64,000 nucleotides of DNA, from sequence record NZ_CP049149.1; one strand, 5' to 3'. The DNA comes from a plasmid. Every line of letters starts with the position of its first letter. The first letter of the stretch is position 1. The notes beneath the pieces were generated by a model. That model worked only from the letters and a program-made list of their open reading frames with translations. It did no database searches and was not told the DNA's origin. The position numbers were made by a program, and so were the translations under genes. This document shows positions 16,510 through 33,658 of the stretch, in pieces.

Positions 16510-16523
16510 TACCAGTCTGAGAG

Positions 16524-16592
16524 TGTTTCAGAACCTGCTTCCGTATATATAAATAACTAAGTACTAATTATTAATATATACAGAAACAGGCT
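16524..16592. repeat. large imperfect palindrome element, copy 1 (promoter/operator-like)
   Basis: TTCAGAACCTGCTTCCGTATATATAAATA...ATATATACAGAAACAGG; TTCAGA-N16-TATAAA gives sigma70-like spacing; near-identical copy at 44602-44656. Confidence 0.5.
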
Positions 16593-16708
16593 TTTAAAGT
16601 CTGTGTTTCTGAACCCACTCCCAGACCGATTTACACCTCCAGAACTCTCTGGAACCCCTCTCCAGACGCTCTAGAATCGTTTTTAAAGACACAGTAAGGA
16701 AAACTATC

Positions 16709-16939
16709 ATGGCATACCCGACGAACGTCGTAGCGCTCGTTGAGAGCGATTTTCTGGCCAAAGCCCGTGACATGATGAAAGATCGCGAAAAGGCTTTCAG
16801 TCTGTACGAATGGTCACTCAAATGCCTGCACGCAGGCGAGCATCGCGAGTTGCTGGAGCAGCTCTTAGGCGAACTTATCAATGAGGTGTTTGCACTCAAT
16901 GTCCAGCTTCATGGGCGAGATAATAACCAAACAGTTTAA
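16709..16939 (+). CDS. hypothetical protein (76 aa)
   Basis: ATG with AAGGAAAA SD downstream of palindrome element. Confidence 0.4.
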   Translation: MAYPTNVVALVESDFLAKARDMMKDREKAFSLYEWSLKCLHAGEHRELLEQLLGELINEVFALNVQLHGRDNNQTV

Positions 16940-17470
16940 TAGGTAAGTACAAACTATTTTAAGCCGTGATCGCCAGTGATAAAATCTCCGCGCTGGCAGA
17001 TGTATCTGCCAGCTCGACCTGATGGGTGGGGGATAGCGTCACTGGCGTCAGGTTTAAAAAAGCCCACTACCAGCGTAGAACCGGCACCGTTTAGGGGTTG
17101 GGGAAGGGGGAACCAAAGTGGGCAGAGACAAGGGTCACTTTATGATTGTCGAGTCTGGGATGTTTCGAGAGGTTGAATCCAGTACTCCCCTTCATAGAGT
17201 GTGGGAAGATCTCGGTTCTGGGGTGCTGTCATCCATAACTTCCCAAGCCTAAGCTGGCAGTAGACTTAGGTCATAACTTTTCAGGTTATGTAACGACCAG
17301 GTTGGTGAGGAATTTTTGTACTCACCTCCCTGGGAGAGTATTACCTGAAAAGACAACCTCTCACTTCGTTCGAGGTGAACTTCACTCACTTCGTTCGTTC
17401 AGTTCAGGGGATTTAACCCCTGTTCTGGGAAGTAAGTTTTTTTATTAATTTAAATACTTTACACGCACGC
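16940..17470 (+). other. 530-bp non-coding, hairpin-rich region (possible structured RNA/regulatory DNA)
   Basis: no credible ORF; perfect 20-bp palindrome CTGGCAGATGTATCTGCCAG (16993-17012), G-rich tract, direct repeat TCACTTCGTTCG x2, CAGGGGATTTAACCCCTG hairpin, then AT-rich block. Confidence 0.3.
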
Positions 17471-17524
17471 GTGCGCACACGCGCGAGGAAAAAAATCGTC
17501 GCGGCGCGCGTTTCTGGAGCCACC

Positions 17525-18118
17525 ATGACGACGAAGACACCAGCCCGACAAAAAACTGGCTGCCGGCCAAAGTCCAAACGAAACCATCCCCAGACCCGAT
17601 TCAAAACTCCCGCAGTCGACTTCAATCCCCAGCTTAAAACCGTAAAAGTGTTCAGTGACGGCTCCTGCCTCAAAAATCCGGGCGGGCCTGGTGGCTACGG
17701 CATTGTTCTCCAGTATCGCGATGAAGAGCGCGAGCTTTCTGATGGCTTCCACAGCACCACCAACAACCGCATGGAAATGATGGGCGCGCTGATGGCTCTG
17801 GAGCGGCTCAAGTACCCCTGTAACGTCATTCTGTATTCGGACAGCCAGTATCTCAAAAACGGCATGACGCTCTGGATGAAAGGCTGGAAGCGCAACGGCT
17901 GGGTGACGTCAGAGAAGAAGCCAGTGAAGAATGTTGATTTGTGGAAACGACTCGATGCAGCGGCCAGTCGACATAACGTTCGCTGGCAATGGGTCAAAGG
18001 CCATGCCGGACATCGCGAGAATGAGATCTGCGACCGGCTGGCAAAGATAGCTGCTTTCGCCGCAGCGGATACCCCACACAAACGAGATATCGGTTTTTTG
18101 GCTCAAAATGATAAGTAG
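17525..18118 (+). CDS. rnhA: ribonuclease HI
   Basis: ~55-60% identity to E. coli RnhA by eye ([48 protein letters not shown]); ATG 17525 with GGAG SD gives ~45-aa basic N-terminal extension not present in host enzyme. Confidence 0.85.
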
Positions 18119-18261
18119 GTATTTACCTATCATATTAAATCAGGTATCTTATCCATCGTCAGGATGACGAAGCGTCGGTAAGGCGCTGTTCCACGGATGG
18201 AACGCCCAAAGGCGGCTGGCAATGCCAGCCGCAACTCTTTCTGACATTGAATGGATTTCAC

Positions 18262-18738
18262 ATGGCACACCAAACGCCTCTCACTTCTTTCAAAAAGCGC
18301 CCCCGTTCAATACGCCTTGCTTTGGCTGAGTTGTTTAGCGGCCGTGTTTCCGCACGTCTTGCGCAGCTTGAAGAGCGGGTGTTTGACCTGGAGGTGCGGG
18401 CTAATGCCCAGGCCACCACGATTGCCAATCTGGGGACGATTATCGCCGTCGATAAGGCAGGCGATTCCGCCAAATCCCGGAAGCACACAGGGAAAAGCAA
18501 TGGAAAATTTTCAAAGAAAGCGTCTGATGCCAATGGCCTACGCGCTAATTTTGGTTTCTCTGGCCGCGGCAGCAGTTCCAGCCGGTCAGAGCCTGTTGAT
18601 ACCGGATTCAACCACTACCACCACACCATCGTCGACGACACGCCTTCCAGAGAAAGCGTCTGCCACTCTGGATGGGATGTCTCTGGACACGATTCCGGGT
18701 CGTCCTGCGATTTCGGATCTTCCTCCTGCTGCGACTGA
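18262..18738 (+). CDS. hypothetical protein, outer frame of overlapping ORF pair
   Basis: open frame with coiled-coil-like N-terminal half; weak RBS; C-terminal half is low-complexity and fully overlaps 18500-18751. Confidence 0.25.
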   Translation: MAHQTPLTSFKKRPRSIRLALAELFSGRVSARLAQLEERVFDLEVRANAQATTIANLGTIIAVDKAGDSAKSRKHTGKSNGKFSKKASDANGLRANFGFSGRGSSSSRSEPVDTGFNHYHHTIVDDTPSRESVCHSGWDVSGHDSGSSCDFGSSSCCD

Positions 18739-18751
18739 GATGACGGCATGA
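18500..18751 (+). CDS. secreted Thr/Pro-rich small protein (83 aa)
   Basis: AGGGA SD 6 nt before ATG; signal-peptide-like MPMAYALILVSLAAAAVPA; stop overlaps next start (ATGA); codon usage looks coding. Confidence 0.45.
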   Translation: MENFQRKRLMPMAYALILVSLAAAAVPAGQSLLIPDSTTTTTPSSTTRLPEKASATLDGMSLDTIPGRPAISDLPPAATEMTA

Positions 18752-18945
18752 GATTTAGTTTTCAGAAGACTTTCACGCTGATGGTTGGACTTTGTGTCCT
18801 TCTGCTCGGCGGTTGGGTCATGAATCTGTTGAAGCTGATCGCCAGCGGAGATCTGCATTCTCACGCCGGGATAACACTGGCCCGCGTCGTGGGGGTCTTT
18901 CTGGTGCCGGTTGGCGGCATCCTCGGCTTTTTTAACGCTGAATGA
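18748..18945 (+). CDS. small membrane protein (2 TM)
   Basis: LMVGLCVLLLGGWVMNLL and VVGVFLVPVGGILGFF hydrophobic helices; coupled to upstream gene. Confidence 0.45.
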   Translation: MRFSFQKTFTLMVGLCVLLLGGWVMNLLKLIASGDLHSHAGITLARVVGVFLVPVGGILGFFNAE

Positions 18946-18999
18946 TTTTCAGGGTTGCTTAAACAATTTGTTAAATCACTTAACTAATAGGGAAAACAC

Positions 19000-19425
19000 A
19001 TGTTAGGTTTTTTAAAAAAGAAAACGCGTAAAGCGGTTGTTGAAGTGAAAAAGATGGAGAACCGCGACGCTGTAGAGGCGACCGTCTGGGGTGCCTACAT
19101 GATCGCATACGCTGACGGCAACTGTGATGCCAAAGAGATCGCCATTCTTGAAAAAACCATCGCGGCGCTGCCAGCATTCTCTCCGTTCGCAGGCGAAATC
19201 GCGCAGATGAGCAGCAACATTCGCGCGCGTTATGAGGCATCTCCGCGCTCTGCCAATGCCCAGGCTCTGCGTGAGCTGGGTGACGTAGCCGGTACGCCGG
19301 AAGCTGTAGATGTGCTGTGCCTGTGCATCGACATTGCAGATCAGGATGGCATCGGCGAAGAAGAAGAGATTGTGCTTAAGAAAATCGCACAGGCGCTCCA
19401 GCTCTCTCTGGATGCGTACATCTAA
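19000..19425 (+). CDS. TerB-like domain protein (putative)
   Basis: two repeats of the ADG-x-D-x-E-x3-L pattern (YADGNCDAKEIAILEKTI; ADQDGIGEEEEIVLKKIAQAL) reminiscent of TerB; preceded by promoter-like repeat. Confidence 0.4.
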   Translation: MLGFLKKKTRKAVVEVKKMENRDAVEATVWGAYMIAYADGNCDAKEIAILEKTIAALPAFSPFAGEIAQMSSNIRARYEASPRSANAQALRELGDVAGTPEAVDVLCLCIDIADQDGIGEEEEIVLKKIAQALQLSLDAYI

Positions 19426-19580
19426 TGGCAGAGAAATTAAGGCTGGCCGTCGTCGCCATTCTTCTCGTGCTGGTCGTGCTGGTGGACTTCACTGGCAAAC
19501 TGATGTCTATCGCGGCAGATGGCGTGTTGGTTGGATTGGCTATCTACTTTGCCCAACCTCTACTTAAAAAATCGAAGTGA
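19425..19580 (+). CDS. small membrane protein (51 aa)
   Basis: TAATG overlap with upstream gene; LAVVAILLVLVVLV TM segment. Confidence 0.35.
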   Translation: MAEKLRLAVVAILLVLVVLVDFTGKLMSIAADGVLVGLAIYFAQPLLKKSK

Positions 19581-19584
19581 TCGC

Positions 19585-19612
19585 CGAGGGCCACCTGGCC
19601 CTCGATTCTTCT
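19585..19612 (+). terminator. stem-loop terminator candidate
   Basis: CGAGGGCCA CC TGGCCCTCG perfect 9-bp stem followed by T-rich stretch. Confidence 0.45.
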
Positions 19613-19707
19613 GGTTTAACCGTTATGACGCGTTTGCCCCCCTCTTCTGAATTGTCAGAATAAAGCCACCAAGAAAACAAATTATTTTAACAATTAAGGA
19701 AAAACAC

Positions 19708-20286
19708 ATGTGTGATAAATGCACCGCCGCTAACGCTGAAGTAAAGAAGATCATTAATGAAGTCGGGGCTAAAAAACTCGTAGGGATGCTTGATTCTATA
19801 ACTGGTCATGGTGACGCTCATCCGCTGGAACGCATCATGGCCATCGTCCAGGTCATGGACTTATTTGATGAACCAATGAAAATCCTGATGCTTGCTCGTC
19901 ACTTTGGCGGGGCGTATGTGGAAGAGCATGAACGTGCCAATAAACTGCAGGCAACTCTGGACATGATGAGCGAACCAAAATGCGCGCCGGCGCCAGAGCT
20001 CTCCGGAGACAATATGGGCATTGAAAGCAAAGAGCGGGAGATCGCCAGCCTTAAGTCTTCTTTAGGCATGTTAATTACCGCCTTTAAACTAATGGCAACC
20101 CATAACGGTTTCAAAATGCCAGAGCTAACCGGCGATGAACATCCCGCTGCTATTCGCCAGCTACTTGGTGCCATGACGGATAATATGGATGAAGCGAAGA
20201 GCCCTATCGAAGATATGATGCGAGAACTTGCCCACCGCCACGATCTAAATGACCAGCCGCACAAGATGCAGCAAGTCAGCCACTGA
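19708..20286 (+). CDS. hypothetical protein, paralog A of a duplicated cassette (192 aa)
   Basis: ~50% identical over full length to 28346-28915 (N-terminal MCxxC, conserved C-terminus KCAP...FKMPE...DMMRELAHRHDL); preceded by promoter-like repeat. Confidence 0.6.
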   Translation: MCDKCTAANAEVKKIINEVGAKKLVGMLDSITGHGDAHPLERIMAIVQVMDLFDEPMKILMLARHFGGAYVEEHERANKLQATLDMMSEPKCAPAPELSGDNMGIESKEREIASLKSSLGMLITAFKLMATHNGFKMPELTGDEHPAAIRQLLGAMTDNMDEAKSPIEDMMRELAHRHDLNDQPHKMQQVSH

Positions 20287-20298
20287 ACCTGAAATAGC

Positions 20299-20318
20299 AA
20301 GGGGGCGAGAGCCCCCTT
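20299..20318 (+). terminator. GC hairpin after paralog A
   Basis: AAGGGGGC GAGA GCCCCCTT; same structure follows paralog B. Confidence 0.4.
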
Positions 20319-20414
20319 CCCCTCCTCCGTAGCCCTCTGTATAGATCTTTTACGCCTTTTCTTATCTGAGATAATAAAACCAATAGGAAAACAAATTGTT
20401 TATATGGTGGGATT

Positions 20415-20630
20415 ATGAGTGCTGCGCTTTCTGTCCTTGAGTCTTTTGCTTCGAACACCGGTATCGACCACAGCAAAGAGATGAACGTCATCCATGCAAT
20501 CGTGGCCGAGTGCGAGAAAGGGATCGCGTTCATGCACCAGGTTCACGACTTCACTTATGGCGACGAACGTCACTGGAATAAGTGTTTAAGATTTGTACTA
20601 CGTACATTGGAAGTGGAAATTATTTGGTAG
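20415..20630 (+). CDS. small hypothetical protein (71 aa)
   Basis: follows promoter-like repeat; N-terminus homologous to truncated ORF at 29035. Confidence 0.45.
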   Translation: MSAALSVLESFASNTGIDHSKEMNVIHAIVAECEKGIAFMHQVHDFTYGDERHWNKCLRFVLRTLEVEIIW

Positions 20631-20691
20631 GGATATAAGATCATATCCCTAAGCTCTTTTAAGAAAAAATTTCTTAATAACCTAATGTAAT

Positions 20692-23600
20692 TTAAATCCT
20701 TCCTCCAACCCCTTTAAATTTTTCGATAAACGCCCCAATTTTTTGGAATACGGTCTGCTTTTTCGTTTTGTACTGAGGATTCAGTGGACTGAGTTTTGGT
20801 AGCGTCTCATTTAACTCCGTCCCATTTTCGGTAGCATATTCCCGTTTGAGTGATGTACGGATATAGCGCCTTGCCGCCTCTTCATTGAGGTTTTCTTCCT
20901 TAATCAACGCTTCCGCTTCCTGTTGCTGTTCACGCTGAGCATAGGTAAAGAATGCATCAATGATACTGGCCTTATCCGGCATGTCATCAAGGTTAGTTTG
21001 CTGAATAAAGTCAACAATCAGACCTTCTTTGGCACGGTTGCCCAGACTTGACCGGATTAAGCGTCGGACCTCTTCAGTCAGGGCTTCTTTACCCTTTTTC
21101 TGACGGTTGTGGTCAAAAATCAGGCCCAGAATGTAGTCCAGGTTAATCTCTTGCGACTTGAGCAGGTCAATTTCAAACACCACGTCATCCCAGTCCGTGG
21201 TTGATGTATCCCTGTCGTTTGCTGCTTTTTCACGTCGCTGCCAGTCCCGGATATCATTGTAAGCTGAGCGGTAGTCCTGAACTTTACGTTCGGCAGGGAG
21301 GCGAATGGTTTGTAATTCAGCAAATTTTTCATCATCCACGTAGTGCTCTGCTTTAAAGGTTTCTACCGCTTCCGGGTCACTAATATCAACCTTCTGCAGG
21401 GCTTTCAGCGTGGCAAATTCATCGTAGTTTTGCAGGATGTTTTCTGCCCGCAGATATTCACCAAACAGTTTGACGAAGGCTTTTTTCTCTTTTTCACTGT
21501 CGATACTGGCAGGGTCAGGGAAGCGCTGCTCCAGCTCCGAAACAATAGACATAAAACCTCGTTTAGCTTCGCCGGTTGCCGCATCGCTAAAGCCCTGCAT
21601 GTACTCTTCGTAGCTTTTTTCCAGTACCACATTCTTGGTGTTTTTGTCGCCAAAAAGTGTAATGGCATCAATGGTGGGACGCTCCAGGTCCCTGAAAGTC
21701 ACGATATTGCCGAAGGTTTTGGTTGCATCATAGATACGGTTGGTGCGTGAGAATGCCTGCATCAGACCGTGATAACGCAGGTTTTTGTCAACGAACAGAG
21801 TATTGAGAGTCGGAGCATCAAAGCCAGTCAAGAACATTCCCACCACGATGAGAAGGTCAATATCCTGATTTTTCACTCGTTGAGCTAAATCGCGGTAGTA
21901 GTTCTGGAAACCGTTACTGTCGGTGCTGAAATTGGTTTTAAAGTGATTGTTATAGTCATCAATGGCTGAATCCAGGAATTCCTTTGCGCTGCTGTTCATT
22001 GCACTGGTATCAAAACTTTCGTCGGTAATATCACCAATGGCGCTTTGCTCTTCATTAGCAGCAAAAGAGAAGATAGTTGCAACCCGAAGGCGTTTATAGC
22101 TGCCTGATTTTTTTGCTGCTTCTTCCTGTAGTACTTTAAACGTCGAGTAATAAGCTTTTGCCGCTTCCACACTGCTAACTGCTAACATGGCGTTAAAGCC
22201 CTTAGCTCCCGGGAAGGTTCGGTGCGTTTTCTGACGGAAGTTATTGAGAATGTATTGCGTTATTTCCTGGATACGCAGTGGGTGTAAAAATGCCTGTTGG
22301 TTTTCAGCCGCGCTGAGTTTTTTCTCATCAGTTTCCGTTTCAAGAGACTTAAACTGTGGGCGGACATCGTTATAGTCCACCTTAAACTTCAGCACTTTTT
22401 CATCACGAATCGCATCAGTAATGACGTAAGAATGTAATTCACGCCCGAAGACGCTGGCGGTGGTTTCTGCCCCCAGTGCATTTTCCGGGAAAATAGGCGT
22501 ACCAGTAAAACCAAACTGATAAAAGCGTCTGAATTTCTTTTTGAGGTTTTTCTGGGCCTCACCAAACTGGCTGCGGTGACACTCATCAAAGATAAACACC
22601 ACCTGCTGCTGATAGACGGGCAGGTCAGCTTCGGCTTTCATCAGATTATTGAGTTTCTGAATGGTTGTGACGATAATTTTGTTATCGTCCTTATCCAGGT
22701 TTCTTCTGAGGCCTGCTGTATTATCCGAACCATTGACACTGTCCGGAGAGAAGCGCTGATACTCCTTCATGGTCTGGTAATCGAGGTCTTTCCTGTCGAC
22801 CACGAAGAAGACTTTATCGATAAAGTCCAGCTCAGTAGCCAGACGTGCGGCCTTAAAGCTGGTCAGGGTTTTTCCTGACCCTGTGGTATGCCAGATAAAT
22901 CCACCGCTTTCGGGTTTTGACCAGTTCTTCGCTTTAAAAGAGCTGTTGATTTTCCAGAGAATGCGCTCGGTGGCGGCAATCTGATAGGGGCGCATGACGA
23001 GCAGCGTCTGGCTGCTGTCAAACACGCTGTAATTAAACAGAACATTCAGCAGAGTATGCTTCTGGAAGAAAGTGGCGGTAAAGTCCTTCAGGTCCTTAAT
23101 CAGAGTGTTATCCGACTTCGCCCAGTTCATGGTGAAATCAAAGCTGTTTTTATCCCGCTTAGTGGTACTGGCAAAGTACCGGGTATCGGTTCCGTTAGAT
23201 ATCACAAACAGTTGCAGGTATTTAAACAGAGAGTTGTCGCTGTTAAAGCTTTCCTTACTGTAACGGTGTATCTGGTTAAAGGCTTCACGAATCGCCACGC
23301 CGCGCTTTTTGAGTTCGATTTGCACCAGCGGCAGGCCGTTGACCAGAATCGTAACATCATAACGGTTAGCGTGTGAGCCGGTCTGTTCAAACTGCTGAAT
23401 GACCTGCACCTTATTGCGCAGCAGGTTCTTTTTATCTATCAAATAGATGTTTTCCAGACGACCATCATCAAACGTAAAATCACAGATATAGTCGATATGG
23501 ATTTTACGGGTTTTGTCCAGGCTGCTGTCACTGGGGCTGTCCAGATATTGCTCTGCGAAGCGCCGCCATTCACTTTCGTTAAACACCACACCATTAAGAC

Positions 23601-23808
23601 GCTGAAGCTGGTCCCGCACATTCGCCAGCATCGCAGTCGGTGACTTAACGGAGATAAACTCATAACCCTGATTAAGAAGATCCTGAATCAGCGCCCGCTC
23701 AAGGTCCGATTCGCTCTGGTAGCTGTCACCGGTATCCATAACTTTTGTGTATTTATCAAGGACGATAAAGTTATTGGATTCAGCAATAGTGTGTGTTTGA
23801 TGAGTCAT
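20692..23808 (-). CDS. hsdR: type I restriction enzyme R subunit
   Basis: SF2 translocase motifs WHTTGSGKT (Walker A), [10 protein letters not shown] (DEAH/DECH box), TGTPI, C-terminal helical domain; 1038 aa; low GC. Confidence 0.9.
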
Positions 23809-23929
23809 AGCGCATCCTTTGTGCCGCCTGGCAAGGGCCGGAAGGGAGTTAAGAGTGACTTCCGGCGTGTAAAAAATAGTCTATATACTGACCGGGTGTT
23901 AAGGTGGCCCGATCGGTAGCAATGGTCAA

Positions 23930-25198
23930 TTAATTACTGACAGTTTCAGGTTTCGGGAAACTGAAAAGTAAATCACGGTAGTATTCGTATTGTTTCTGGC
24001 GCAACTCGATTTCACGCGGGAGACCTTCAGTGATGGAGTTGGTCAGTGTGTCGAATTTATCCAGAATCCGAACGATTTCAGACTGGATGGCAAGGGATTT
24101 TTCCGGATTGTCCGGGCAGGGGATTGGGATTTTCAGTTTGTTTAAAACGGATTGTGTTTGGCTTGGTACTCCTCCTGCTTGGTTCATTTCGCCAAGGCCA
24201 ACCGTCGTTAAGAAGTAGTAAAGATACTTTGGCCTAATTTGTGCTTCATCAATTTCCGTATAAAAAATGGTGTCAACGGTCCAGAATGGAACATCGATGA
24301 AAAATAAATTACCAAGCGAGCCTTTTCTCGGAATTAAGACTGAAGGCTTATTATAGGCATAGGTATCTACATATCGCATGATTCCACCTGAACCGTAAAC
24401 AGGGAACTCGCCTTCGCTGAGAGATTTATGATCCTTGCCATTTCTGATGCGAGCCAAATCACTCAATGGCAACCACTCAACCTCAACCCCATCCAGCAAT
24501 TTTTCCAGATAAATAGGTTTTTCCTGCTCCTCATCAAAACTCAGCAACTGGTCGCGATAGTAGTTGTACTGCTTTTTGCGCATGGTAAGTTCAGCTGTAA
24601 GTTCAGCTGTAAGTTCAGCTGTAAGTGCAGTAAACTTATCCAGAATCCGGACGATTTCAGACTGGATAGCAAGGGACTTGTCCGGTTTATTCGGACAAGG
24701 TATAGGGATTTTGAATCCTCCCATTACTGCTGAGTTCAAGTTGTTGATGGTTGAGCTATTCAACATTTCATCGAGATATTTTTGAAAAATATCACTTGTT
24801 AAAACGTGAAATAAATAACGCGGATTTAATTTTTCATCGCATCTGACAACACCCATAAATCCGCCAAAGTAGTAGTCAATATCTGATTCAATGTAAGCAA
24901 CTTTTCCAACATGTTCACGGCTACCACTTGCTGCGCTTATCAGTATGTCGTCCTTATATAGTTTTTGCGAATCCTTTACTTTGGTGTCAAACTTCACCAG
25001 TTTGACATCATTTAAATTTAAACAATTACTAGACAAAGTGATATTGTTAGCACGAAGGACCCTGTAACCTTGACCATCTGCGCTTTCATTCGATTTGCTG
25101 TAAGTTAAACCACGTATATATTTCGCGACTTCTCCCAGAGTCTTCCACTCAACAACAACTCCATCTAGCAATTTGTCTAGATAACTCAGCTTGCTCAT
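23930..25198 (-). CDS. hsdS: type I restriction-modification specificity subunit (two TRDs, IC-family central repeat)
   Basis: two target-recognition halves each followed by [15 protein letters not shown]; central [14 protein letters not shown] and conserved [10 protein letters not shown] / [10 protein letters not shown] blocks; start overlaps hsdM stop. Confidence 0.9.
24584..24631 (-). repeat. 12-bp tandem repeat encoding (TAEL)3 in HsdS central spacer
   Basis: GTAAGTTCAGCT x3 plus degenerate 4th unit on plus strand = ACAGCTGAACTT codons on minus strand. Confidence 0.8.
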
Positions 25199-26751
25199 GA
25201 CTGCACCTCACGGCCTTCAATTTCAGCCACAATTACATCGATATCCTTACGTAACTGATCGATTTTGCCGACGGTGATTTTCAGTTCAGTATTCAGTTCG
25301 GAGATATCAATTATTTCTCGGGTATTCATGGCTTCGACGTAGCTGCTGACTGACAGGTTATAGTTATTGGCGGCAACTGTTTCATGAGGGATAGTTTTAG
25401 CGAGGTGGTCAATATCCGCTTTGCTGGCAAAGGCCTGCATAATCTGTTCGATATGACCATCAGTCAGGATATTGTTATTGGTTTCTTTCTTGAACAAACC
25501 GCTGGCATCAATAAACTGAACACTGGTGTCAGTTTTATGTTTAGACAGCACCAGAATGTTAACGGCAATGGTGGTGCCGAAGAACAGGTTTGGCGCGAGT
25601 GAAATCACCGTTTCAACATAGTTGTTGTCGACCAGGTACTGGCGGATTTTCTGCTCTGCACCGCCACGGTAGAAAATACCGGGGAAGCAGACTATTGCTG
25701 CACGTCCTTTAGCAGACAGGTAGTTCAGCGCATGTAGTACAAACGCAAAGTCAGCTTTTGATTTCGGGGCCAGTACGCCAGCTGGAGCAAAGCGCTCATC
25801 GTTAATCAGGGTCGGGTCGTCACTGCCAATCCACTTAACCGAGTACGGAGGGTTAGAGACAATCGCATCGAACGGTTTTTCATCGCCAAAGTGAGGCTCA
25901 GTCAGGGTATTCCCCAGTCTGATATCAAATTTGTCGTAGTTGATGTTATGTAGGAACATGTTCATACGCGCCAGGTTAAAGGTTGTATGATTTATCTCCT
26001 GACCATAAAAACCTTCTTCAATGATATGGTTATCAAAGTGTTTTTTCGCCTGAAGCAGCAGTGAACCGGAGCCAGCTGCAGGGTCATAGATTTTGTTGAC
26101 GTGAGTCTGACCGTGCATCGCAAGCTGAGCAATCAGCTTAGAGACGTGCTGAGGTGTGAAGAACTCCCCGCCAGACTTACCGGCATTTGCCGCATAGTTA
26201 GAAATCAGGAACTCGTAGGCATCACCAAACAGGTCAATCTGGTGCTCGTTAAAATTCCCCAGTTTTAGCCCCTCAACGCCTTTGAGAACGGCGGCAAGAC
26301 GGGTGTTTTTGTCTTTGACTGTGTTACCCAGTCGATTGCTGGTCGTATCGAAATCGGCGAACAGGCCTTTGATGTCGGCCTCCGACGGGTAGCCGTAGGC
26401 AGAGCTTTCTATAGCGACGAAGATACTGTTTAAATCAGCATTTAGCCTGTCGTTGGTGTTCGCTTTAGCGGCAACGTTGCAGAACAGCTGGCTCGGGTAG
26501 ATGAAATAGCCTTTAGTCCTGATGGCATCGTCTTTGATGTCATCGGTAATGATGCTGTCATCAAGTGCTGCATAATGTATGCTCTCATCCCCTGCTTCCA
26601 TGTAGCTGGAAAAATTCTCACTGATGAAGCGGTAGAAAAGGGCACCGAGTACATACTGTTTAAAATCCCATCCATCTACGGAGCCTCTGACATCATTGGC
26701 AATGGCCCAGATTTGGCGGTGTAGCTCTGCACGCTGCTGAAGGCTTGTCAT
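25195..26751 (-). CDS. hsdM: type I R-M N6-adenine DNA methyltransferase subunit
   Basis: N-terminal HsdM domain ([37 protein letters not shown]), AdoMet motif [11 protein letters not shown], motif IV NPPY. Confidence 0.9.
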
Positions 26752-26999
26752 TTTGTATCCTGTTGTATGATTCTTAAGTACTGTTATTGGCCCGATTTTA
26801 TCGCAATTTCATATTGATGACAGGCTTTGTATGTCATACGTTGCACTGAGAGTTCGTTTGCCCGGTTGTGTAGCCAACACTCTTTCAGTCAGGCCAGTAG
26901 AAACGTTGTGCTGACGATAAATACTGAAGCCCCAATACTATCGGGGCTGAACGTTCAGTCGGTGAGAATTTCTTCATCCGTATCCATTGTGGATGGTGA

Positions 27000-28200
27000 T
27001 CAGGGCGAGAGCGTGAACAAATTGTTAAATTGACTTCAATTCAGCCAGCCCTGCGTCCAGTACCTTTTCCAGATATGGGCTGCTCATGCCCGCAAATTGC
27101 TGCTTCTTCCGTAAGCTTGCCTTACGGCTGGTTTCGGCTCGCAGCATGTTTTGCGCCATGTGTCGTGCACAGGCCAATATTTGAGGGGCATCACCTCGAT
27201 ATATCTGGCAGGCATCCTCATTCATCACGACATCCAGTACCCAATGCAGTTGGTTTTCGATGCCCCAATGACTGCGCACCCCGTTGGCAAATTGCTCTTC
27301 GGTTAGTTCAGCCGAGCTGATGTAGTAACGGTACTCTAGCGATTCATGCCCCTTGCTGTCGCACCGATAACCGATGGCAACCCCCAAGCTGGATAAACCT
27401 TTCCAGGCCGGGAACTGCTCGGCTATCGCCCCAACTGGCATGACATGGTACTCACGGATCTCTATTCGCCCCCGTGAGCGCTCTATCTTGGCCTGATGGC
27501 TACCTTCTCGGGCCTGCAGCGCCATGGCCTCACGTACTGCGCGATATAGGGTTTCTTGGTTGCCTTTGACTGCCAGTAGATAGTCGCCTCCCTTATCGAC
27601 TATCTTGGCAGCAATCTCGGTTTGGCAACCCATAGCATCAATGGACACCAAACAACCACGGACATCCAGCAACACCAGTAATTCCGGAATAGCAGTGATT
27701 TCATTGGACTTAGTGTCTGTCTTGACCTGTCCCAGCACCACGCCATTGGCGCTGGCAAACGCGCTGACCATGTGGATGGTGGATTGCCGATCCTCACGGT
27801 TATATGAACTACGTAGAACCTTGCCATCAATAGCAATCAATTCACCACTGACGCGTTTGTGGACGACTTTCATCCATTTGAGGAAACAAGCCTGAAATTC
27901 GTCTGGCGCCAGCCGGGATATCACTCTGGCAATGGTGTCGTGCACAGGAAGTCCGTTGGGAAACAAGCCTTTATCCTGGAGCCAGCGGCAATGGGCCTGA
28001 CCGAAGTCTTCAATATCTTCCCAGCCTTCACATCCACCAATGACGGCGCATACCGTCAGGAACACGATGTCGAACAAGGGGTAAGCAATTTTTGCCGACT
28101 GACGCGGGTCCTGAAGATCAGCAAAAATTTCAGCAAAGGCATCCAGTTGCATTGATGTACTCCCAGAAAAGGAAGTATCAGATCACAACTGATCCCCAGG
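27000..28200 (-). mobile_element. ISAs1-family insertion sequence (boundaries approximate)
   Basis: transposase ORF fills the element; terminal inverted repeats not confidently identified; sits between hsdM promoter region and paralog B promoter repeat. Confidence 0.45.
27025..28152 (-). CDS. ISAs1-family (H-repeat-associated) transposase
   Basis: N-terminus MQLDAFAEIFADLQDPRQSAKIAYPLFDIVFLTVCAVIGGCEGWEDIEDFG characteristic of H-repeat/ISAs1 transposases; DDE region present. Confidence 0.8.
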   Translation of the reverse strand: MQLDAFAEIFADLQDPRQSAKIAYPLFDIVFLTVCAVIGGCEGWEDIEDFGQAHCRWLQDKGLFPNGLPVHDTIARVISRLAPDEFQACFLKWMKVVHKRVSGELIAIDGKVLRSSYNREDRQSTIHMVSAFASANGVVLGQVKTDTKSNEITAIPELLVLLDVRGCLVSIDAMGCQTEIAAKIVDKGGDYLLAVKGNQETLYRAVREAMALQAREGSHQAKIERSRGRIEIREYHVMPVGAIAEQFPAWKGLSSLGVAIGYRCDSKGHESLEYRYYISSAELTEEQFANGVRSHWGIENQLHWVLDVVMNEDACQIYRGDAPQILACARHMAQNMLRAETSRKASLRKKQQFAGMSSPYLEKVLDAGLAELKSI

Positions 28201-28345
28201 TCAAAATGTACTGTGCTCGGTTAAAAAACGTTCATGATCTTGCCCTGCCCTGCTCTCCCTTAAACACAAACTTTCTTGTCATTACGTATAATGTGATAAT
28301 AAGACATATAAGAAAACATTTTGTTTAAACTAATAAGTAAATGAC

Positions 28346-28915
28346 ATGTGTCTGAATTGCAAAGATAAATACGCAGAGATGAATGCAAAATTTGAAGAAA
28401 TGGAAGTCGTGGATCTGGTAAAAATGCTTGGTATAGTGCGCGGCACAGAGCAGTCTTCAGTGCCTGAAAGACTGATTACTGTCGTTAAATTCGCTTCAAT
28501 TTTTGATGACCCAATGGAAATCATTGGCCTGGCGCACCAACTAGGTGTTCACTATCTGGCAGAGAAAGATCGCGCCGATAAAATGCAATCCACACTGAAT
28601 ATGGTCAGCGAGCAGAAATGCGCACCGAGCGCCAGCAAAACTGACGAAACTGTCGCCAGTAAAGACCGCGAAATTGCCGGTCTGAAATCTTCGATGGCCA
28701 TACTTATTTCTGCCTTTAAGTTGATGACCACCCAGACAGGTTTCAAAATGCCTGAGATGAACAATGAAGATCCGATGGCTGTGCGTGAACTGTTGGGCGC
28801 GCTGGCCGACCAGCTGGACACCAAGAAAAGCCGCCTGGAAGACATGATGCGCGAGCTAACCCACCGACACGATCTGACTAAACAGCCGCACAAAGCGCAG
28901 CACGCGAATCACTAA
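28346..28915 (+). CDS. hypothetical protein, paralog B of duplicated cassette (189 aa)
   Basis: homolog of 19708-20286; own promoter-like repeat at 28295-28330. Confidence 0.6.
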   Translation: MCLNCKDKYAEMNAKFEEMEVVDLVKMLGIVRGTEQSSVPERLITVVKFASIFDDPMEIIGLAHQLGVHYLAEKDRADKMQSTLNMVSEQKCAPSASKTDETVASKDREIAGLKSSMAILISAFKLMTTQTGFKMPEMNNEDPMAVRELLGALADQLDTKKSRLEDMMRELTHRHDLTKQPHKAQHANH

Positions 28916-28932
28916 TCGCTTGACTCAATGAC

Positions 28933-28952
28933 GGGGGCGAAGCCCCCTTTTC
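28933..28952 (+). terminator. rho-independent terminator
   Basis: GGGGGC GAA GCCCCC + TTTTC. Confidence 0.5.
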
Positions 28953-29034
28953 ATGCCTGTAAATCCTCCTACTATGCCTTTTGAGCTCTGAAAAATAACA
29001 CCAATAAGAAAACAAATTGTTTAATGCTTTTATT

Positions 29035-29124
29035 ATGAATACAGCCCTTTCTATTGTTGATGACATTAGTCTGAACACTGAAATCGACTATCGGCAGGAG
29101 ATGGGTGTTATGGAGCCAGTCTAG
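29035..29124 (+). pseudogene. truncated copy (29 aa) of the 20415-20630 small gene
   Basis: MNTALSIVDDISLNTEIDYRQEMGVM aligns with MSAALSVLESFASNTGIDHSKEMNVI then terminates; downstream DNA is a lower-GC insertion. Confidence 0.35.
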
Positions 29125-29271
29125 ACGACGATACCATTCTGCTATTCTTCAAACACGGAAACATCCACTTTCTGGTTGGCTCTCAAGCTACTAGGTTATT
29201 CATGTCCGTAGGTGGAAATAAGTGTGCCAACAGATGTTATGGTAAATAAGAGTGATGTGAAGCTATGAATC

Positions 29272-29775
29272 ATGGGGAGAAATACACGGATGGAAGTCGA
29301 GATATGTGGTGTTGCAAATGTGCCGGAACTAGCCCATCTTTTTGTTGAAATGGAGGATTATTACTTCGGTCGCGGCGTTGTCAGCTATGAGGATATGAGC
29401 GCTTATCTTGCTGACAAAGTATTCTCTACTTATTCAGGCGTTACGGTTGTTGGTGCTCGTAAAAAAGGAGAGCTTGTTGGATTTGCCACTTTTTCGCTGA
29501 TGTTCCCCGCGCCGCTTTGTTCCGGTCAGGCATTTATGAAGGAGATCTTTATATCAGAAGCGGTACGAGGCCAAGGTGTCGGTAAATCGCTAATTAGGTT
29601 TATCGCAAACTTTGCCCTCAAACACGGTTGTTCACGCCTTGACTGGACTGCGGAGAAGTCCAATCCGAAAGCCGGAGAGTTTTACTTGTCCATTGGTGCC
29701 ACTCTAATTGAAGAAAAACAGTACTTTAGGCTGGAGGGGAAGGATCTCGAGACGTTTTCTTCACTCGCTGAGTGA
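29272..29775 (+). CDS. GNAT-family N-acetyltransferase
   Basis: acetyl-CoA motif A RGQGVGKSLIRFIANFA; ~45% GC; alternative ATG at 29290 has better SD. Confidence 0.7.
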   Translation: MGRNTRMEVEICGVANVPELAHLFVEMEDYYFGRGVVSYEDMSAYLADKVFSTYSGVTVVGARKKGELVGFATFSLMFPAPLCSGQAFMKEIFISEAVRGQGVGKSLIRFIANFALKHGCSRLDWTAEKSNPKAGEFYLSIGATLIEEKQYFRLEGKDLETFSSLAE

Positions 29776-29866
29776 GTATCAGAATAGGGCGCACTTTTGA
29801 TGTTATGATTATTTCTCGTCAATTTGTTAATAGTTAACGTAAAGATACGGAGAGTGGAATAAACAA

Positions 29867-30271
29867 ATGACAATTTTAGTGACGATACAGAGCCAACTTG
29901 TTGTTGGTGAGGCGCAGGTGATAAAGAGCTTGGCTCCTGAAGGGATGTTGGCAGCCGTTTTCGAGGACGATGGTGAAACCGGGTATTTCTACGCTCTTGA
30001 TGAGTCTGTCGACGGCAACGCCATTCAAGACGCAGTACATATTTACAACGTAGAAGATATTGCGGATGGAGATATCCCTTCTGACGTTAAAATCGGCTGG
30101 TCTCAAGATAGTCAGAAGTGCGTGCTTCTGATCAACGGTTATCCCTACGGGGTGTTCGATTTCGTGGGCAAAAACGGGTATTGCAGAAGTGGCTTTCCTC
30201 CACCGATTAATGATACATGGTCGGCATCCGGTCATGAGTGGAGCGACGCAGTGGATGATTTTTTTCGATGA
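29867..30271 (+). CDS. hypothetical acidic protein (134 aa) downstream of GNAT
   Basis: GGAGAGTGG SD; the fully overlapping minus-strand ORF has no RBS. Confidence 0.5.
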   Translation: MTILVTIQSQLVVGEAQVIKSLAPEGMLAAVFEDDGETGYFYALDESVDGNAIQDAVHIYNVEDIADGDIPSDVKIGWSQDSQKCVLLINGYPYGVFDFVGKNGYCRSGFPPPINDTWSASGHEWSDAVDDFFR

Positions 30272-30524
30272 ATCCAAGCAAGCCTAGCATCTGCCGTTAT
30301 GCTTCTAATATTAAGCACTTATATGGGAGGTCGCTTCTTGCATCGATATATCTATACTGTTTGCGACATTTCGGTTGAGTGTTTGATAAGGTTCCATTGA
30401 TAATAAAACCCAAATGGTAAAGACCGTTCGTAAAGTAAGGCCAATCTTGTGGCCTTAAACAAATTGTTTTCACCCACTAGTTATTATCCCATCATTTAAA
30501 ATTGCCCTTTTCTGAACGCACGGA

Positions 30525-30544
30525 TACTGTTTGTATATACAGTA
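30525..30544. promoter_or_regulatory. LexA (SOS) box candidate
   Basis: TACTGTTTGTATATACAGTA = CTGT-N8-ACAG matching 18/20 of consensus TACTGTATATATATACAGTA, 18 nt upstream of ATG 30562. Confidence 0.5.
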
Positions 30545-30561
30545 TTCAGGGTGGAAAAAAG

Positions 30562-30828
30562 ATGGGCGGCAAAGACAGCAACTACCAGATCGTTTATCGC
30601 GGCGAGACGCTTCAGTGCCTCAAGCCTGGGCAATATGTCTTCTTTCAGCGGCTGAAAGAGTATGGCGGAGGATTCTGGTTGGGAAAAACCTACGAAGATG
30701 GCTTTGAGTTTGTGCTGGAGTGGCCAACCTCTCTGAGTGAGGGGCTGCTGTATCTGATGTCACTTGAGCGCATGGAGGCGAACTATCTTGAGTTTGTTAA
30801 TGACATCGATGATTTTAAGCTGACCTGA
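30562..30828 (+). CDS. small hypothetical protein (88 aa), putatively SOS-regulated
   Basis: ATG 30562 behind LexA-like box. Confidence 0.5.
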   Translation: MGGKDSNYQIVYRGETLQCLKPGQYVFFQRLKEYGGGFWLGKTYEDGFEFVLEWPTSLSEGLLYLMSLERMEANYLEFVNDIDDFKLT

Positions 30829-30910
30829 CAACCTCAGGCATCTTTTTAATGCCGTATGTGATTTGAGATAATAACACACACAAGAAAACAATTTGTTTAA
30901 GGAGGTTCCC

Positions 30911-31147
30911 CTGTTCGGAACCACGGGCGAAATCATTGAGAAGCTGGAGAACTATCCGGAAAACAATTTTCTTCTGATGGTCATGTGGCACAAGTAAGGC
31001 GTAAGCTAGGTTCGACCGGATCTGACAGACGAGCAGTGCGTACAGGTGATGCGTAAAATCAAGGACTTCCATGATGGGAATGTGGGCGTGAATTGGGATG
31101 TTATCGCTAACACGGCCGATATCCTGTTTCTGAAGGAGAAGGCGTGA
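30911..31147 (+). pseudogene. decayed small gene (no ATG start, in-frame TAA and TAG)
   Basis: perfect promoter repeat + AAGGAGG SD at 30855-30903 but first in-frame codon is CTG; frame continues through TAA (30995) and TAG (31007) to TGA 31145 with protein-like sequence on both sides. Confidence 0.3.
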
Positions 31148-31464
31148 TGCTGACATTCAACGAATCCTATAAGACGGCTGTGATCGGCACCGCCCATGTC
31201 ACGGGCAAAGACTTTTAGCTGCTGCCTGTCGTGTGCTTTGACCCATTGACCGATCGCGGACTGAATTGGGTACACGGCACACAGTACGGCTGGATTGTTC
31301 GTGCGGGAATTCGAGGGAATGACTGGAGGGAAGAATTGCATGAGTACGGCATTTCGAAAGAGACGATCTCAAACACACAGACCATACTAGATGCCGGATA
31401 TGACGCGGTACATTTTGACAGTGATGTGGAGCTGGTGGATGGGATACCGGCATGGGATTGGTAA
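31147..31464 (+). pseudogene. small gene interrupted by in-frame amber codon
   Basis: ATG 31147 overlaps previous stop (TGATG); same frame runs to 31464 apart from TAG at 31216-31218. Confidence 0.35.
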
Positions 31465-31477
31465 GGGAGAGAAAAAG

Positions 31478-31672
31478 ATGACGGCAGAAGACGTGATTAA
31501 TGATGTGCTGGTGGAGCTGGGTAAGCTACCTGATCATCTCCTCATAGCCACCGTATTTGACAACATACCTGCTGAGTTAAAGGCCCTGGCCAATGAGTGG
31601 GGATGGATGGATACGGAAGTTAGAGAGCAGCTATATGCGATAGCCTGGCGGATTGTTAACGCGCAACAATAG
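31478..31672 (+). CDS. small hypothetical protein (64 aa)
   Basis: AAGGGAGAG SD before ATG 31478. Confidence 0.45.
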   Translation: MTAEDVINDVLVELGKLPDHLLIATVFDNIPAELKALANEWGWMDTEVREQLYAIAWRIVNAQQ

Positions 31673-31823
31673 CCTGCAACGCGTTGACATTGGTGGTCAC
31701 TAATTGAGGATTTCTATAAGAACTCGTTGATCGCCCTCTTCCCTACTCTCCAACTTCATACACTCCAGGCGCGGCAAGGCTTTTACGCACATAACACCCA
31801 CAAGAAAACAAATAAATAATACA

Positions 31824-32009
31824 TCAATGAAAAGTCAACGCTTTACCCTGATTTGGTCCAAAAAGTTGACGTTTTGCCATGTCACTTCTTATATCCGTTA
31901 AGCAGCGTACCAGAGACCAACACCCTGCGACGAAAACGCCAAAAACGACTCCTGATACCACCACAAAACAGACATGCTCAGAATGGCTCTCGTTGCGTTT
32001 AATGAGCAT
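31824..32009 (-). CDS. small membrane protein candidate (61 aa)
   Basis: minus-strand copy of promoter repeat at 32013-32030 abuts ATG; one TM segment; no SD. Confidence 0.25.
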   Translation of the reverse strand: MLIKRNESHSEHVCFVVVSGVVFGVFVAGCWSLVRCLTDIRSDMAKRQLFGPNQGKALTFH

Positions 32010-32039
32010 ATAAACAAATTGTTTTAGGCATTAAGAAAA

Positions 32040-32640
32040 CAACAAAACAAGATAACGAAGAAAAGGAACTGCCATTACCCACACCCAGGCAATACCCACC
32101 TCTTCCTGCCAGGCTACCGAAAAGACCAACCTCATTGCCCTAGGCTACCGACCCCATGAAGCAAACCTCGAGCACTACCAAAAAGCGACAAGAGAAAGGC
32201 AATTTCTCTGAACGCCATTCCCCCAATACACGGAAGAGATACCCGGGAAGAAACTCCAGACCAGAACAGTCCCCGGCGTCATATCGTTTACCCACTCTTA
32301 CCCCGAAAGATAACGCAAATTCCTGATTAGCAGGGAACGCCATTACTTCACATAAGGAGAACTACAACAGACCAGAAATCACATCACCCACACTTCCACC
32401 TCTCAAGGTAAACGAAAGGAAAAGCGCACACGCCATTACTCCATACACAGAGAAGAACTATCCCCAAAACGAAGAATACAGACCAGAGGAAAACCACAAG
32501 AAAACCATCTCTACAACATCTGCAAAACCACTTACCGGCAGAGAGAAGAAAGTCGCCTTTTCTCCCATACGAATGGTCACCGTATAGAGCGCTAATAAGA
32601 GAGATACGAGTCCCCATAAGAGAGGTTATTCGAGTCAGGA
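32040..32640 (+). other. 600-bp untranslated strongly A+C-rich, G-poor tract with degenerate direct repeats
   Basis: G ~15%, C ~30%, A ~40% on coding strand; recurrent ACGCCATTAC and AGACCAGA units; opposite-strand ORFs encode implausible G/T-codon proteins. Confidence 0.5.
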
Positions 32641-33131: not shown

Positions 33132-33209
33132 AAAATGCTTTTTAGCCTATGTCTTATTGCGATAATAACACCAACGAGAAAACAACGTGTTTAGACAATG
33201 GAGAAAAAC

Positions 33210-33653: not shown

Positions 33654-33658
33654 CAACG

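Follow-up and report, generated by a model that had tools for sequence, protein, structure and literature searches.

Two lineage alleles of one backbone gene flank a restriction-modification and IS block at a probable mosaic junction in an SSU5-like phage-plasmid

Introduction

Phage-plasmids (P-Ps) exchange defence genes and transposases by recombination (PMC10879196), and temperate phages and satellites carry defence and cargo hotspots, such as those of P2/P4 (PMC13586616). For p2 of Kp1604, a related plasmid, the RM system was inferred to be a defence against the uptake of mobile elements (PMC8969562). At the locus considered here the type phage-plasmid SSU5 (JQ965645) has one copy of a gene that we call X (SSU5_094), an intact 561-aa methylase and an antirepressor upstream.

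The DNA that we analysed, referred to below as the window, is a stretch of 64 kb. Its X is 60% identical to SSU5_094 and, as in SSU5, is followed by a promoter/operator unit and then by the start of a DUF4942 ‘putative DNA modification methylase’. A preliminary description of the window proposed that a restriction-modification (R-M) and IS island is enclosed by two diverged paralogous cassettes, each consisting of a gene, a GC hairpin, a promoter repeat and a small gene, and that such a paralog array acts as a cargo hotspot. As set out below, the “cassettes” are very probably two old lineage alleles of a single-copy backbone gene, adjoined by recombination of an R-M block beside an IS.

Results

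Identity of the element

The window belongs to an SSU5-like phage-plasmid. It is collinear with SSU5 (exonuclease, Dam, RNase H, X, DUF4942), and 20,570 bp of it are 100% identical to a 107,988-bp contig, which falls within the size range of the SSU5 group (~100-115 kb). In the comparison with related phages suggested in the preliminary description, synteny at the locus matched SSU5, pJN2-26, one Salmonella plasmid and LF82, with X normally single. The features of the locus are listed in Table 1.

Table 1. Coordinates of the features at the X/DUF4942 locus of the window
Feature	Position	Strand	Remarks
TerB-like gene	19000-19425	+	Backbone; Pfam
DUF3927 gene	19425-19580	+	Backbone; Pfam
Predicted promoter/operator unit before X(A)	19653-19688	+	TGTCAGAAT-N9-AAGAAAACAAATTATTTT
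X(A), 192 aa	19708-20286	+	phrog_5508/SSU5_094 homologue; Klebsiella-lineage allele
GC hairpin after X(A)	20299-20318	+	AAGGGGGC-GAGA-GCCCCCUU; -16.4 kcal/mol
Predicted promoter/operator unit, DUF4942 gene, A copy	20367-20402	+	TGAGATAAT-N9-AGGAAAACAAATTGTTTA
DUF4942 5' stub, A copy	20415-20630	+	Codons 1-53 native (to nt 20573); phrog_25525
Hairpin between stub A and hsdR 3' end	20628-20651	not assigned	Possibly a bidirectional terminator
Predicted type I R-M operon	20692-26751	-	Three intact ORFs
hsdR, 1038 aa	20692-23808	-	EcoR124_C domain
hsdS, 422 aa	23930-25198	-	TAEL x3 repeat at 24585-24630
hsdM, 518 aa	25195-26751	-
DUF262/HEC-05 gene remnant	26955-27001	-	Last ~15 codons; end of donor-type DNA
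ISAs1-family IS, 1246 bp	27002-28247	-	Pfam, family match, inverted repeats
ISAs1-family transposase, 375 aa	27025-28152	-
Intergenic DNA, resident pCsaCS931a-type	28248-28345	+	Includes X(B) promoter/operator unit, ~28290-28327
X(B), 189 aa	28346-28915	+	phrog_5508; Cronobacter-lineage allele
GC hairpin after X(B)	28933-28947	+	GGGGGC-GAA-GCCCCC, then UUUU; terminator-like
Predicted promoter/operator unit, DUF4942 gene, B copy	28988-29023	+	TGAAAAAT-N9/10-AAGAAAACAAATTGTTTA
DUF4942 5' stub, B copy	29035-29124	+	~24 codons native (to ~29103)
GNAT acetyltransferase	29272-29775	+	Replacement cargo, co-oriented with captured promoter
DUF2251 protein	29867-30271	+	Replacement cargo, co-oriented with captured promoter

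Two alleles of gene X

The identity of the two X proteins, previously put at about 50%, is 48% over the full length (92 of 192 residues, 66% positives, E 2e-62). The pairwise alignment extends from end to end and does not reflect low complexity; the MCxxC start noticed earlier is present in both proteins, as is the segment ...EDMMREL(A/T)HRHDL..QPHK, and both match the phrog_5508 profile at positions 1-189 of 189 (E 1.5e-98 for X(A) and 2.4e-86 for X(B)). At the DNA level the two ORFs are ~66% identical, with dN of 0.42 and dS of ~2.4 (synonymous sites saturated), and the longest exact run shared by the cassettes is 16 nt. X(A) is 97-100% identical to orthologues in Klebsiella phage-plasmids, and X(B) is 99.5-100% identical to those of the Cronobacter lineage, the exact X(B) protein being present in 111 assembly blocks. 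In the family X is normally a single-copy gene: it was found at 743 places in 733 plasmids (PLSDB), and once per locus in 73 of 73 IMG/VR loci. Since the synonymous sites are saturated and each copy is near-identical to a different lineage, X(A) and X(B) are alleles from two lineages joined by recombination, and no in-situ duplication took place.

A true cargo-recruiting paralog array would have required tandem duplication in situ of X together with the terminator, promoter and small gene, followed by divergence. The direct orientation of both units, their similar internal layout and the cargo that does sit between them agree with such an origin; it is nevertheless scarcely credible in view of the near-identical single-copy orthologues of A in Klebsiella and of B in Cronobacter, the saturated divergence between A and B, the single-copy state of X in ~733 plasmids and 73 viral contigs, and the layout of hairpin, promoter and DUF4942 start, which is the ancestral X-DUF4942 intergenic region seen in SSU5. 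A tandem array was rejected also because the copies are nearer to orthologues from other elements than to each other and the multi-copy state is uncommon. Thus, of the earlier reading, the hotspot is retained (see below) and the paralog array is not.

Among the syntenic genes of the region, X has diverged most (48-50% identity vs 59-94% for its neighbours). Chimeric X alleles exist as well.

DUF4942 stubs and the promoter/operator unit

The “small genes” downstream of the two X alleles are both stubs of a DUF4942 methyltransferase gene. Their 5' ends are homologous, as was described, and align to residues 1-53 (A) and ~1-24 (B) of the 561-aa DUF4942 protein (PF13708, phrog_6263); the truncation, which had been ascribed to copy B only, affects both. 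Past codon 53 the ORF of stub A is foreign DNA read through to a stop. The DUF4942 domain (~140-295) and the N6-MTase motif region (~395-530) are missing from both stubs, which are gene remnants and not methyltransferases. The lower GC content reported after 29125 turned out to be a slight drop, 0.42-0.46 vs 0.46-0.50.

The GC hairpin and the promoter-like repeat reported after each X copy are present. A U-tract follows the B hairpin and not the A hairpin, and the fold z-scores of both are weak (-0.7 for A and -1.4 for B). The promoter-like block shared by the cassettes has its 3' limits at 20402 (A) and 29023 (B); it is, however, no cassette feature, as it occurs at 15 sites in the window (0.04 expected), always before start codons, and precedes X and DUF4942 in all lineages examined. 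It is a predicted promoter/operator unit, genome-wide and conserved in the family, and its common use suggests a single regulatory circuit as a candidate for control of the early accessory genes.

Type I R-M operon and ISAs1-family element

The R-M/IS island between the X copies was recovered as described before. The intact hsdR, hsdM and hsdS genes form a predicted type I restriction-modification system (profile scores of 1562 bits for REase_I, 397 bits for MTase_I and 449 bits for Specificity_I). In the type IC enzymes EcoR124I/II, the length of the target-site spacer is determined by how many TAEL repeats HsdS contains. The EcoR124_C domain of the window HsdR and a 12-bp repeat (x3.8) encoding TAEL x3 in its HsdS suggest likeness to these enzymes.

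The IS belongs to the ISAs1 family, as follows from its transposase domains (DDE_Tnp_1_assoc and DDE_Tnp_1, Pfam), terminal inverted repeats CAGGGCGAGAGCGTGAAC and CAGGGCAAGATCATGAAC matching at 15 of 18 positions, and a length within the ~1.2-1.3 kb of the family; it is 97% identical to an Aeromonas element of this family. No target-site duplication is present at its ends, where ..gatggtgat on one side and ccctgctct.. on the other are unrelated sequences from two parents. Lacking the direct duplication expected of a simple insertion, the IS joint is a hybrid junction. A composite transposon and an integron-like cassette array were both rejected, as the 64-kb window holds no second IS copy, there is no integrase ORF in 19.6-29.2 kb, and the repeated block is the promoter/operator unit found at 15 sites before start codons.

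Parentage of the segments

Klebsiella P-Ps match copy A and its type I R-M genes at 96-100% identity. Positions 19400-27000 match the Klebsiella P-P pE16K0288-2 (CP052264.1) with 92-100% identity, in the order DUF3927, X(A), 53-codon stub, hsdRSM and start of DUF262. In Klebsiella R-M phage-plasmids such as pE16K0288-2, the DUF262/HEC-05 gene that comes after hsdM is complete, the target-recognition domains of hsdS differ from those of the window, and both a second X and ISAs1 are absent. Positions 28248-31484, with X(B), the 24-codon stub, GNAT and DUF2251, are 99.5% identical to pCsaCS931a (CP027108) of Cronobacter sakazakii, which has an Mrr-like nuclease gene (Mrr_cat) at the position of the A/R-M/IS block. 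By sliding identity, the backbone preceding block A is of the Cronobacter type; the match to this parent falls at ~19200, and that to the Klebsiella lineage reaches 98-100% at ~19400. Since the interval 19200-19400 fits neither parent well (78-86%), a third lineage may have taken part in the left crossover.

In pH322_1 (CP078111), also from C. sakazakii, the left side, comprising backbone, X(A) and hsdR, matches the window at ~100% identity, whereas the right side consists of a promoter and a full-length DUF4942 gene after the R-M genes, with no X(B). This difference between the sides points to more than one exchange in the history of the locus.

The joint coincides with a 1.2-kb repeat-class element, and the 100%-identical contig was assembled from short reads (Logan), so an assembler might have fused co-resident Klebsiella-type and Cronobacter-type SSU5-like phage-plasmids at a shared IS. 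We regard such a chimera as highly improbable: an independent NCBI assembly (L009), diverged by 2-5% and with a different hsdS, has the same architecture and joints, the contigs, at ~108 kb, have the length expected of one P-P genome, the DNA that precedes block A has a backbone of Cronobacter and not of Klebsiella type, and the window has one IS copy.

Proposed history of the junction

The ancestral order would have been TerB, DUF3927, a slot, X (SSU5_094 homologue) and the DUF4942 orphan DNA methyltransferase (SSU5_095 homologue), each gene having its own extended -10 promoter and palindromic operator. Two older events are envisaged at DUF4942: a type I R-M operon with a DUF262/HEC-05 gene would have replaced it from codon 54 in the Klebsiella lineage, and GNAT and DUF2251 from ~codon 25 in a Cronobacter lineage, which had also an Mrr-like nuclease gene upstream of X. 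The window itself would have arisen when a Klebsiella-type block (TerB end, DUF3927, X(A), 53-codon stub, hsdRSM and the last 15 DUF262 codons) displaced the resident DUF3927-Mrr segment of a Cronobacter-type element. At the left joint a homologous crossover presumably took place within TerB or close to it (~19200-19400); the right joint, the IS with its flanks from different parents, most likely formed by recombination between two IS copies or by IS-mediated deletion in a cointegrate. We only infer the route through two IS copies, since neither proposed parent was found in PLSDB or IMG/VR with an ISAs1 copy at the relevant site. The outcome is two diverged intact X alleles that point the same way on either side of the R-M/IS island, both with a hairpin, a downstream promoter/operator and a dead methyltransferase stub. 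The order of these events is the one we consider probable, and the prevalence of the A-type block (384 Klebsiella records vs 2 Cronobacter records) suggests transfer from Klebsiella to Cronobacter.

A cargo hotspot

That SSU5-like phage-plasmids have a cargo hotspot at this locus is confirmed, and three of its slots vary: between DUF3927 and X, between X and DUF4942, and the DUF4942 body. The slots hold type I R-M, a HEC-05/DUF262 gene, an Mrr-like nuclease, a Rha antirepressor, GNAT with DUF2251, or MarR with an invasin-like adhesin. DUF4942 is interrupted by differing cargo at no fewer than five positions. In two lineages it contains a type I R-M operon, located at codon 53 in one and at codon 157 in the other, and these operons are related (~83% nt identity). 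In the window, GNAT would be expressed from the captured DUF4942 promoter.

These two R-M insertions, together with the pH322_1 island, which is flanked by two 80%-identical copies of the promoter and 5' DUF4942, might speak for a discrete mobile cassette that targets the DUF4942 promoter or 5' end and carries or duplicates X, promoter and stub. We find this very unlikely, as the island has no recombinase or integrase besides the ISAs1 transposase, and the IS is missing from the Klebsiella and E. coli versions; the two R-M versions are similar in coding sequence only, with unrelated ends; breakpoints and right-hand neighbours (DUF262, full DUF4942 or IS) vary by context; and the repeats, at 66-80% identity, are no copies made by insertion.

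Discussion

In all likelihood the region is a mosaic junction within an early-region accessory hotspot of an SSU5-like phage-plasmid, i.e., a recombination scar of ordinary mosaic evolution. It has consequences for annotation. The ORFs of 71 aa (“DNA modification methylase”) and 29 aa, present in hundreds of Klebsiella and Cronobacter plasmids, should be read as dead 5' stubs, and the pair of 190-aa genes as alleles and not as paralogs.

A more far-reaching reading, which we think unlikely, takes X/DUF4942 for a dedicated co-regulated exchange site, where an orphan, presumably anti-restriction, methylase is repeatedly swapped for complete defence systems and X is under diversifying selection. 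If this were true, the related R-M operons would have entered DUF4942 twice independently (codons 53 and 157), and the captured promoter/operator would place cargo under the element's own repressor. X, as the gene under such selection, could then act in host specificity or counter-defence, and possession of two alleles would widen the range of hosts or defences handled.

Our literature search found no description of an X/DUF4942 hotspot in SSU5-like elements, and the mapping of the locus gives a recurrent cargo hotspot a definite position in a phage-plasmid family that is clinically common. Current views are not overturned, as phage-plasmids are already known to exchange defence genes and IS elements in mosaic fashion (PMC10879196). 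Compared with SSU5, the window carries X as two alleles and the methylase as two dead stubs, with R-M, IS and GNAT cargo in addition. With the systems described earlier (PMC13586616; PMC10879196) it shares interchangeable defence systems at fixed backbone positions and an IS tied to exchange; unlike in those systems, one slot is the body of the DUF4942 gene, which cargo overwrites, leaving the promoter and first codons in place.

The allelic cassettes flanking the restriction-modification island

By megablast, the region was placed in approximately 110-kb plasmids of Klebsiella and Cronobacter and in SSU5-group Klebsiella phages. Its gene order, nrdAB, thyA, folA, exonuclease, Dam, RNase H, TerB, DUF3927 and X (the homologue of SSU5_094, phrog_5508), is collinear with that of Salmonella phage SSU5, the E. 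coli LF82 plasmid/phage Cyrano, Klebsiella phage pJN2-26 and a Salmonella plasmid. The window matches a 107,988-bp contig (L008) with 100% identity across 20,570 bp.

The two similar ORFs noticed in the preliminary description, designated here X(A) and X(B), are both present and align end to end (48% identity, 66% positives, E 2e-62), the match spanning the whole length rather than low-complexity segments alone; the refuting condition named in the preliminary description thus does not apply. Both proteins start with MCxxC and end with ...EDMMREL(A/T)HRHDL..QPHK, their C-terminal halves being better conserved. Each X ORF is followed on its 3' side by a GC hairpin, an AT-rich conserved block terminating in (A/G)GAAAACAAATTGTTTA and a short ORF; the DNA of the two cassettes is ~66% identical, and between them lie one IS and, on the minus strand, the intact hsdR, hsdS and hsdM genes of a type I restriction-modification (R-M) system. 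Overall, this observation is confirmed.

Coordinates of the features of the locus and of the promoter/operator unit in the window
Feature	Position (nt)	Strand	Remarks
X(A)	19708-20286		192 aa
GGGGGC...GCCCCC hairpin after X(A)	20299-20318
Short ORF after X(A)	20415-20630
Tandem repeat in hsdS	24585-24630		12 bp, 3.8 copies
ISAs1-family IS, right joint	27002-28247		1246 bp; Pfam DDE_Tnp_1_assoc and DDE_Tnp_1
X(B)	28346-28915		189 aa
GGGGGC...GCCCCC hairpin after X(B)	28933-28947
Short ORF after X(B)	29035-29124
Promoter/operator unit	7698, 7723, 19671, 20385, 28310, 29006, 30882, 33176, 33761, 34720, 35589, 44690, 44715	+
Promoter/operator unit	30456, 34672	-
ORF with Flag1_repress match	37722-38282	-	candidate regulator

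The backbone gene X is normally present once per element, and X(A) and X(B) are alleles of it from two lineages. One copy was found in 73/73 IMG/VR loci and in every reference locus, and a tblastn search with X(B) located 743 places in 733 plasmids. X(A), together with everything at ~19400-27000, is 92-100% identical to Klebsiella phage-plasmids, e.g., pE16K0288-2, and X(B), together with 28248-31484, is 99.5% identical to the Cronobacter plasmid pCsaCS931a; the A-type block occurs in 384 Klebsiella vs 2 Cronobacter records. A scan of genome contigs for the locus revealed two loci only, both in Kluyvera. The 'paralog array' proposed in the preliminary description is not supported, since X is single-copy almost everywhere and the two copies are of Klebsiella and Cronobacter type. 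The lineage-specific near-identity and the saturated synonymous divergence between X(A) and X(B) (dN 0.42, dS 2.4) indicate that they separated long before their juxtaposition, and in-situ duplication is thereby ruled out. Between the lineages, no syntenic gene has diverged further than X: its amino acid identity is 48-50%, vs 94% for DUF4942 and 59-94% for the neighbouring genes. One X protein (P0020) is a natural chimera with an N-terminal half 98% A-type and a C-terminal half 96-97% Enterobacter-type. The GC shift, considered as a sign of foreign origin, was too small to be used as such.

Junctions of the mosaic

In pCsaCS931a, and in six or more further contigs with identical X(B), the gene order is TerB - DUF3927 - Mrr-like nuclease (minus strand) - X(B) - stub - GNAT - DUF2251. 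In the window, the place of the DUF3927-Mrr segment is occupied by DUF3927 of the Klebsiella type, X(A), a 53-codon stub, hsdRSM, the last ~15 codons of a DUF262/HEC-05 gene and the IS. Identity to the Cronobacter parent drops at ~19200 and that to the Klebsiella type climbs to 98-100% at ~19400, which puts the left crossover in the end of TerB. The right joint is formed by the ISAs1-family element, the only copy of this IS in the window, which is 97% identical to an Aeromonas copy and has inverted repeats matching at 15/18 positions. The sequences flanking it, gatggtgat and ccctgctct, show no relationship to one another and lead into different parents. An IS lacking a target-site duplication and having flanks of different origin is a classic sign that two IS copies have recombined or that an IS has mediated a deletion in a cointegrate. 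Judging from IS biology, the right joint would have arisen by one of these two routes, and we consider it very likely that IS-associated recombination brought the two alleles of the X/DUF4942 locus together.

In GCA_033939685.1 (L009), an independent assembly that diverges by 2-5% and has another hsdS (404 vs 422 aa), the architecture and joints are the same; this recurrence shows the arrangement to be real and inherited. A search of IMG/VR for the exact IS/X(B) junction yielded no match. The longest exact match between A and B DNA is 16 nt, and RecA recombination usually requires ~23-27 nt; a ready on/off switch for the island, working by RecA-mediated loss of the DNA between A and B, was rejected, as the match is too short.

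A second mosaic junction was observed at ~31484-31680: the DNA leftward of it is 99.5% pCsaCS931a-like, and that to the right (31678-35000) is ~96% like Klebsiella phage-plasmids and only 70-77% like pCsaCS931a. In the region 19680-22484 of the related plasmid pH322_1 (L001), hsdM is split, residues 260-517 and 1-290 being ~1.2 kb apart, probably due to an insertion; in this plasmid a promoter unit comes directly after the R-M genes and is followed by full-length DUF4942, without a second X.

Remnants of the DUF4942 gene and diversity of cargo

The gene starting at the position of the short ORF in SSU5, pJN2-26, the Salmonella plasmid and LF82 encodes a 561-aa DUF4942 DNA methyltransferase (SSU5_095; PF13708, phrog_6263). 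The ORF of cassette A represents residues 1-53 of this protein, diverging at nt 20573, beyond which foreign DNA begins, and the ORF of cassette B represents ~24 residues, up to roughly nt 29103. What had been regarded as a separate small gene is in both cases a 5' remnant of the DUF4942 gene, and, as only 53 and ~24 residues are matched, both cassettes are truncated: the truncation previously ascribed to copy B holds, and copy A shares it. Many plasmid annotations call the 71-aa stub of A a "DNA modification methylase", and it recurs often enough to form a separate PHROG (phrog_25525).

The suggestion that the locus is a cargo hotspot is supported by the varied DUF4942 breaks and slot contents among 73 IMG/VR loci. 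DUF4942 is intact in 50 of the 73; it is cut at codon 53 and followed by type I R-M of the Klebsiella type in six, and cut at codon 157/158 and followed by type I R-M of the E. coli type in ten. Two cuts occur in one locus each: one at ~36, with other cargo, and one at ~314, behind which lie genes for a MarR regulator and an inverse-autotransporter adhesin of 1416 aa. A further cut, at ~codon 24 and followed by GNAT, characterizes the Cronobacter lineage. In 51 loci of the same set, nothing occupies the DUF3927-X slot; 11 have a Rha/antirepressor gene there and two an Mrr-like nuclease. An extra gene is present in the X-DUF4942 slot of 30 loci. In PADLOC, the cargo falls under type I R-M, HEC-05 (which is the DUF262 gene) and Mrr-like/PDC-S02-like.

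The Klebsiella-type and E. coli-type R-M share ~83% nucleotide identity in the hsdR and hsdM coding DNA only, their ends being unrelated; they were either captured twice independently or descend from one old insertion whose borders were later remodelled. In the codon-157/158 loci, which belong to E. coli-lineage phage-plasmids (L028, L029, L034, L040, L052-L054, L056, L060, L075), the R-M operon is located ~700 bp past the DUF4942 start. The element cut at ~314 (L033, E. coli-type, 12600-19440) bears an intimin/invasin-like adhesin, i.e., virulence-type cargo. The tandem repeat in hsdS of the window codes for TAEL x3 in central HsdS; in the EcoR124 family, the HsdS repeat number alters the target spacer.

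The promoter/operator unit

The 18-mer AAGAAAACAAATTGTTTA occurs 15 times in the window at ≤3 mismatches vs 0.04 expected. Most plus-strand sites share the layout gCCTTTT - ~7 nt - TGnGATAAT (extended -10) - AACACCAAY - AAGAAAACAAnTTGTTTA, the unit ending 12-20 nt ahead of a start codon and having as its core AAACAA-N-TTGTTT, a perfect 13-bp palindrome. It is located ahead of both X and DUF4942 in SSU5 and the examined Klebsiella, Salmonella and Cronobacter relatives, and ahead of X in LF82, and is therefore a predicted family-wide promoter/operator for early accessory genes. Being family-wide, it gives no sign of copying between cassettes A and B, of which a promoter repeat had been thought a feature. 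The captured DUF4942 promoter, we infer, drives transcription of the cargo lying behind the unit in the same orientation (GNAT, DUF2251), and the distribution of the unit suggests that one repressor controls many early accessory genes. A candidate is the minus-strand ORF with a precomputed Pfam match to Flag1_repress (FljA-like repressor, PF03614) in the identical contig L008, a putative regulator for the operator motif. A generic sigma-70 scan displayed no enrichment (16 found vs 16.1 expected) and failed to pick up the actual extended -10 units; sites resembling terminators were mildly enriched (18 vs 12.3 expected), and Rfam gave no match in 15-35 kb of the window.

Possible function of X

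No match to X was found in Pfam or by PADLOC, and a profile search of PDB retrieved nothing at E≤1. An exhaustive HMM profile search of 1.84 billion representatives returned 20 matches, all belonging to X's own small family or fragments. The AlphaFold2 model is all-helical and unreliable (pLDDT 69, pTM 0.29), and Foldseek comparison of it with PDB gave nothing below E 5. An Ocr/ArdA-like nature was rejected on charge, X being merely mildly acidic (pI 5.5-6.0). X is intact at every locus with destroyed DUF4942, and two genes lie between X and DUF4942 in a distant relative; consequently, X is not an obligatory partner of the methylase. A role as a controller of the DUF4942 methylase was dropped, X not being strictly linked to DUF4942.

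Relation to known systems

Our literature search found no description of the X/DUF4942 locus, the DUF4942 breakpoints or the promoter/operator unit. Defence genes and transposases are known, in general terms, to be exchanged between phage-plasmids (PMC10879196), the R-M system on the related Klebsiella plasmid p2 of Kp1604 was inferred to be a defence against mobile-element uptake (PMC8969562), and the defence hotspots of P2/P4 are well known (PMC13586616). The locus is a new and clearly resolved example of an already known kind of event.
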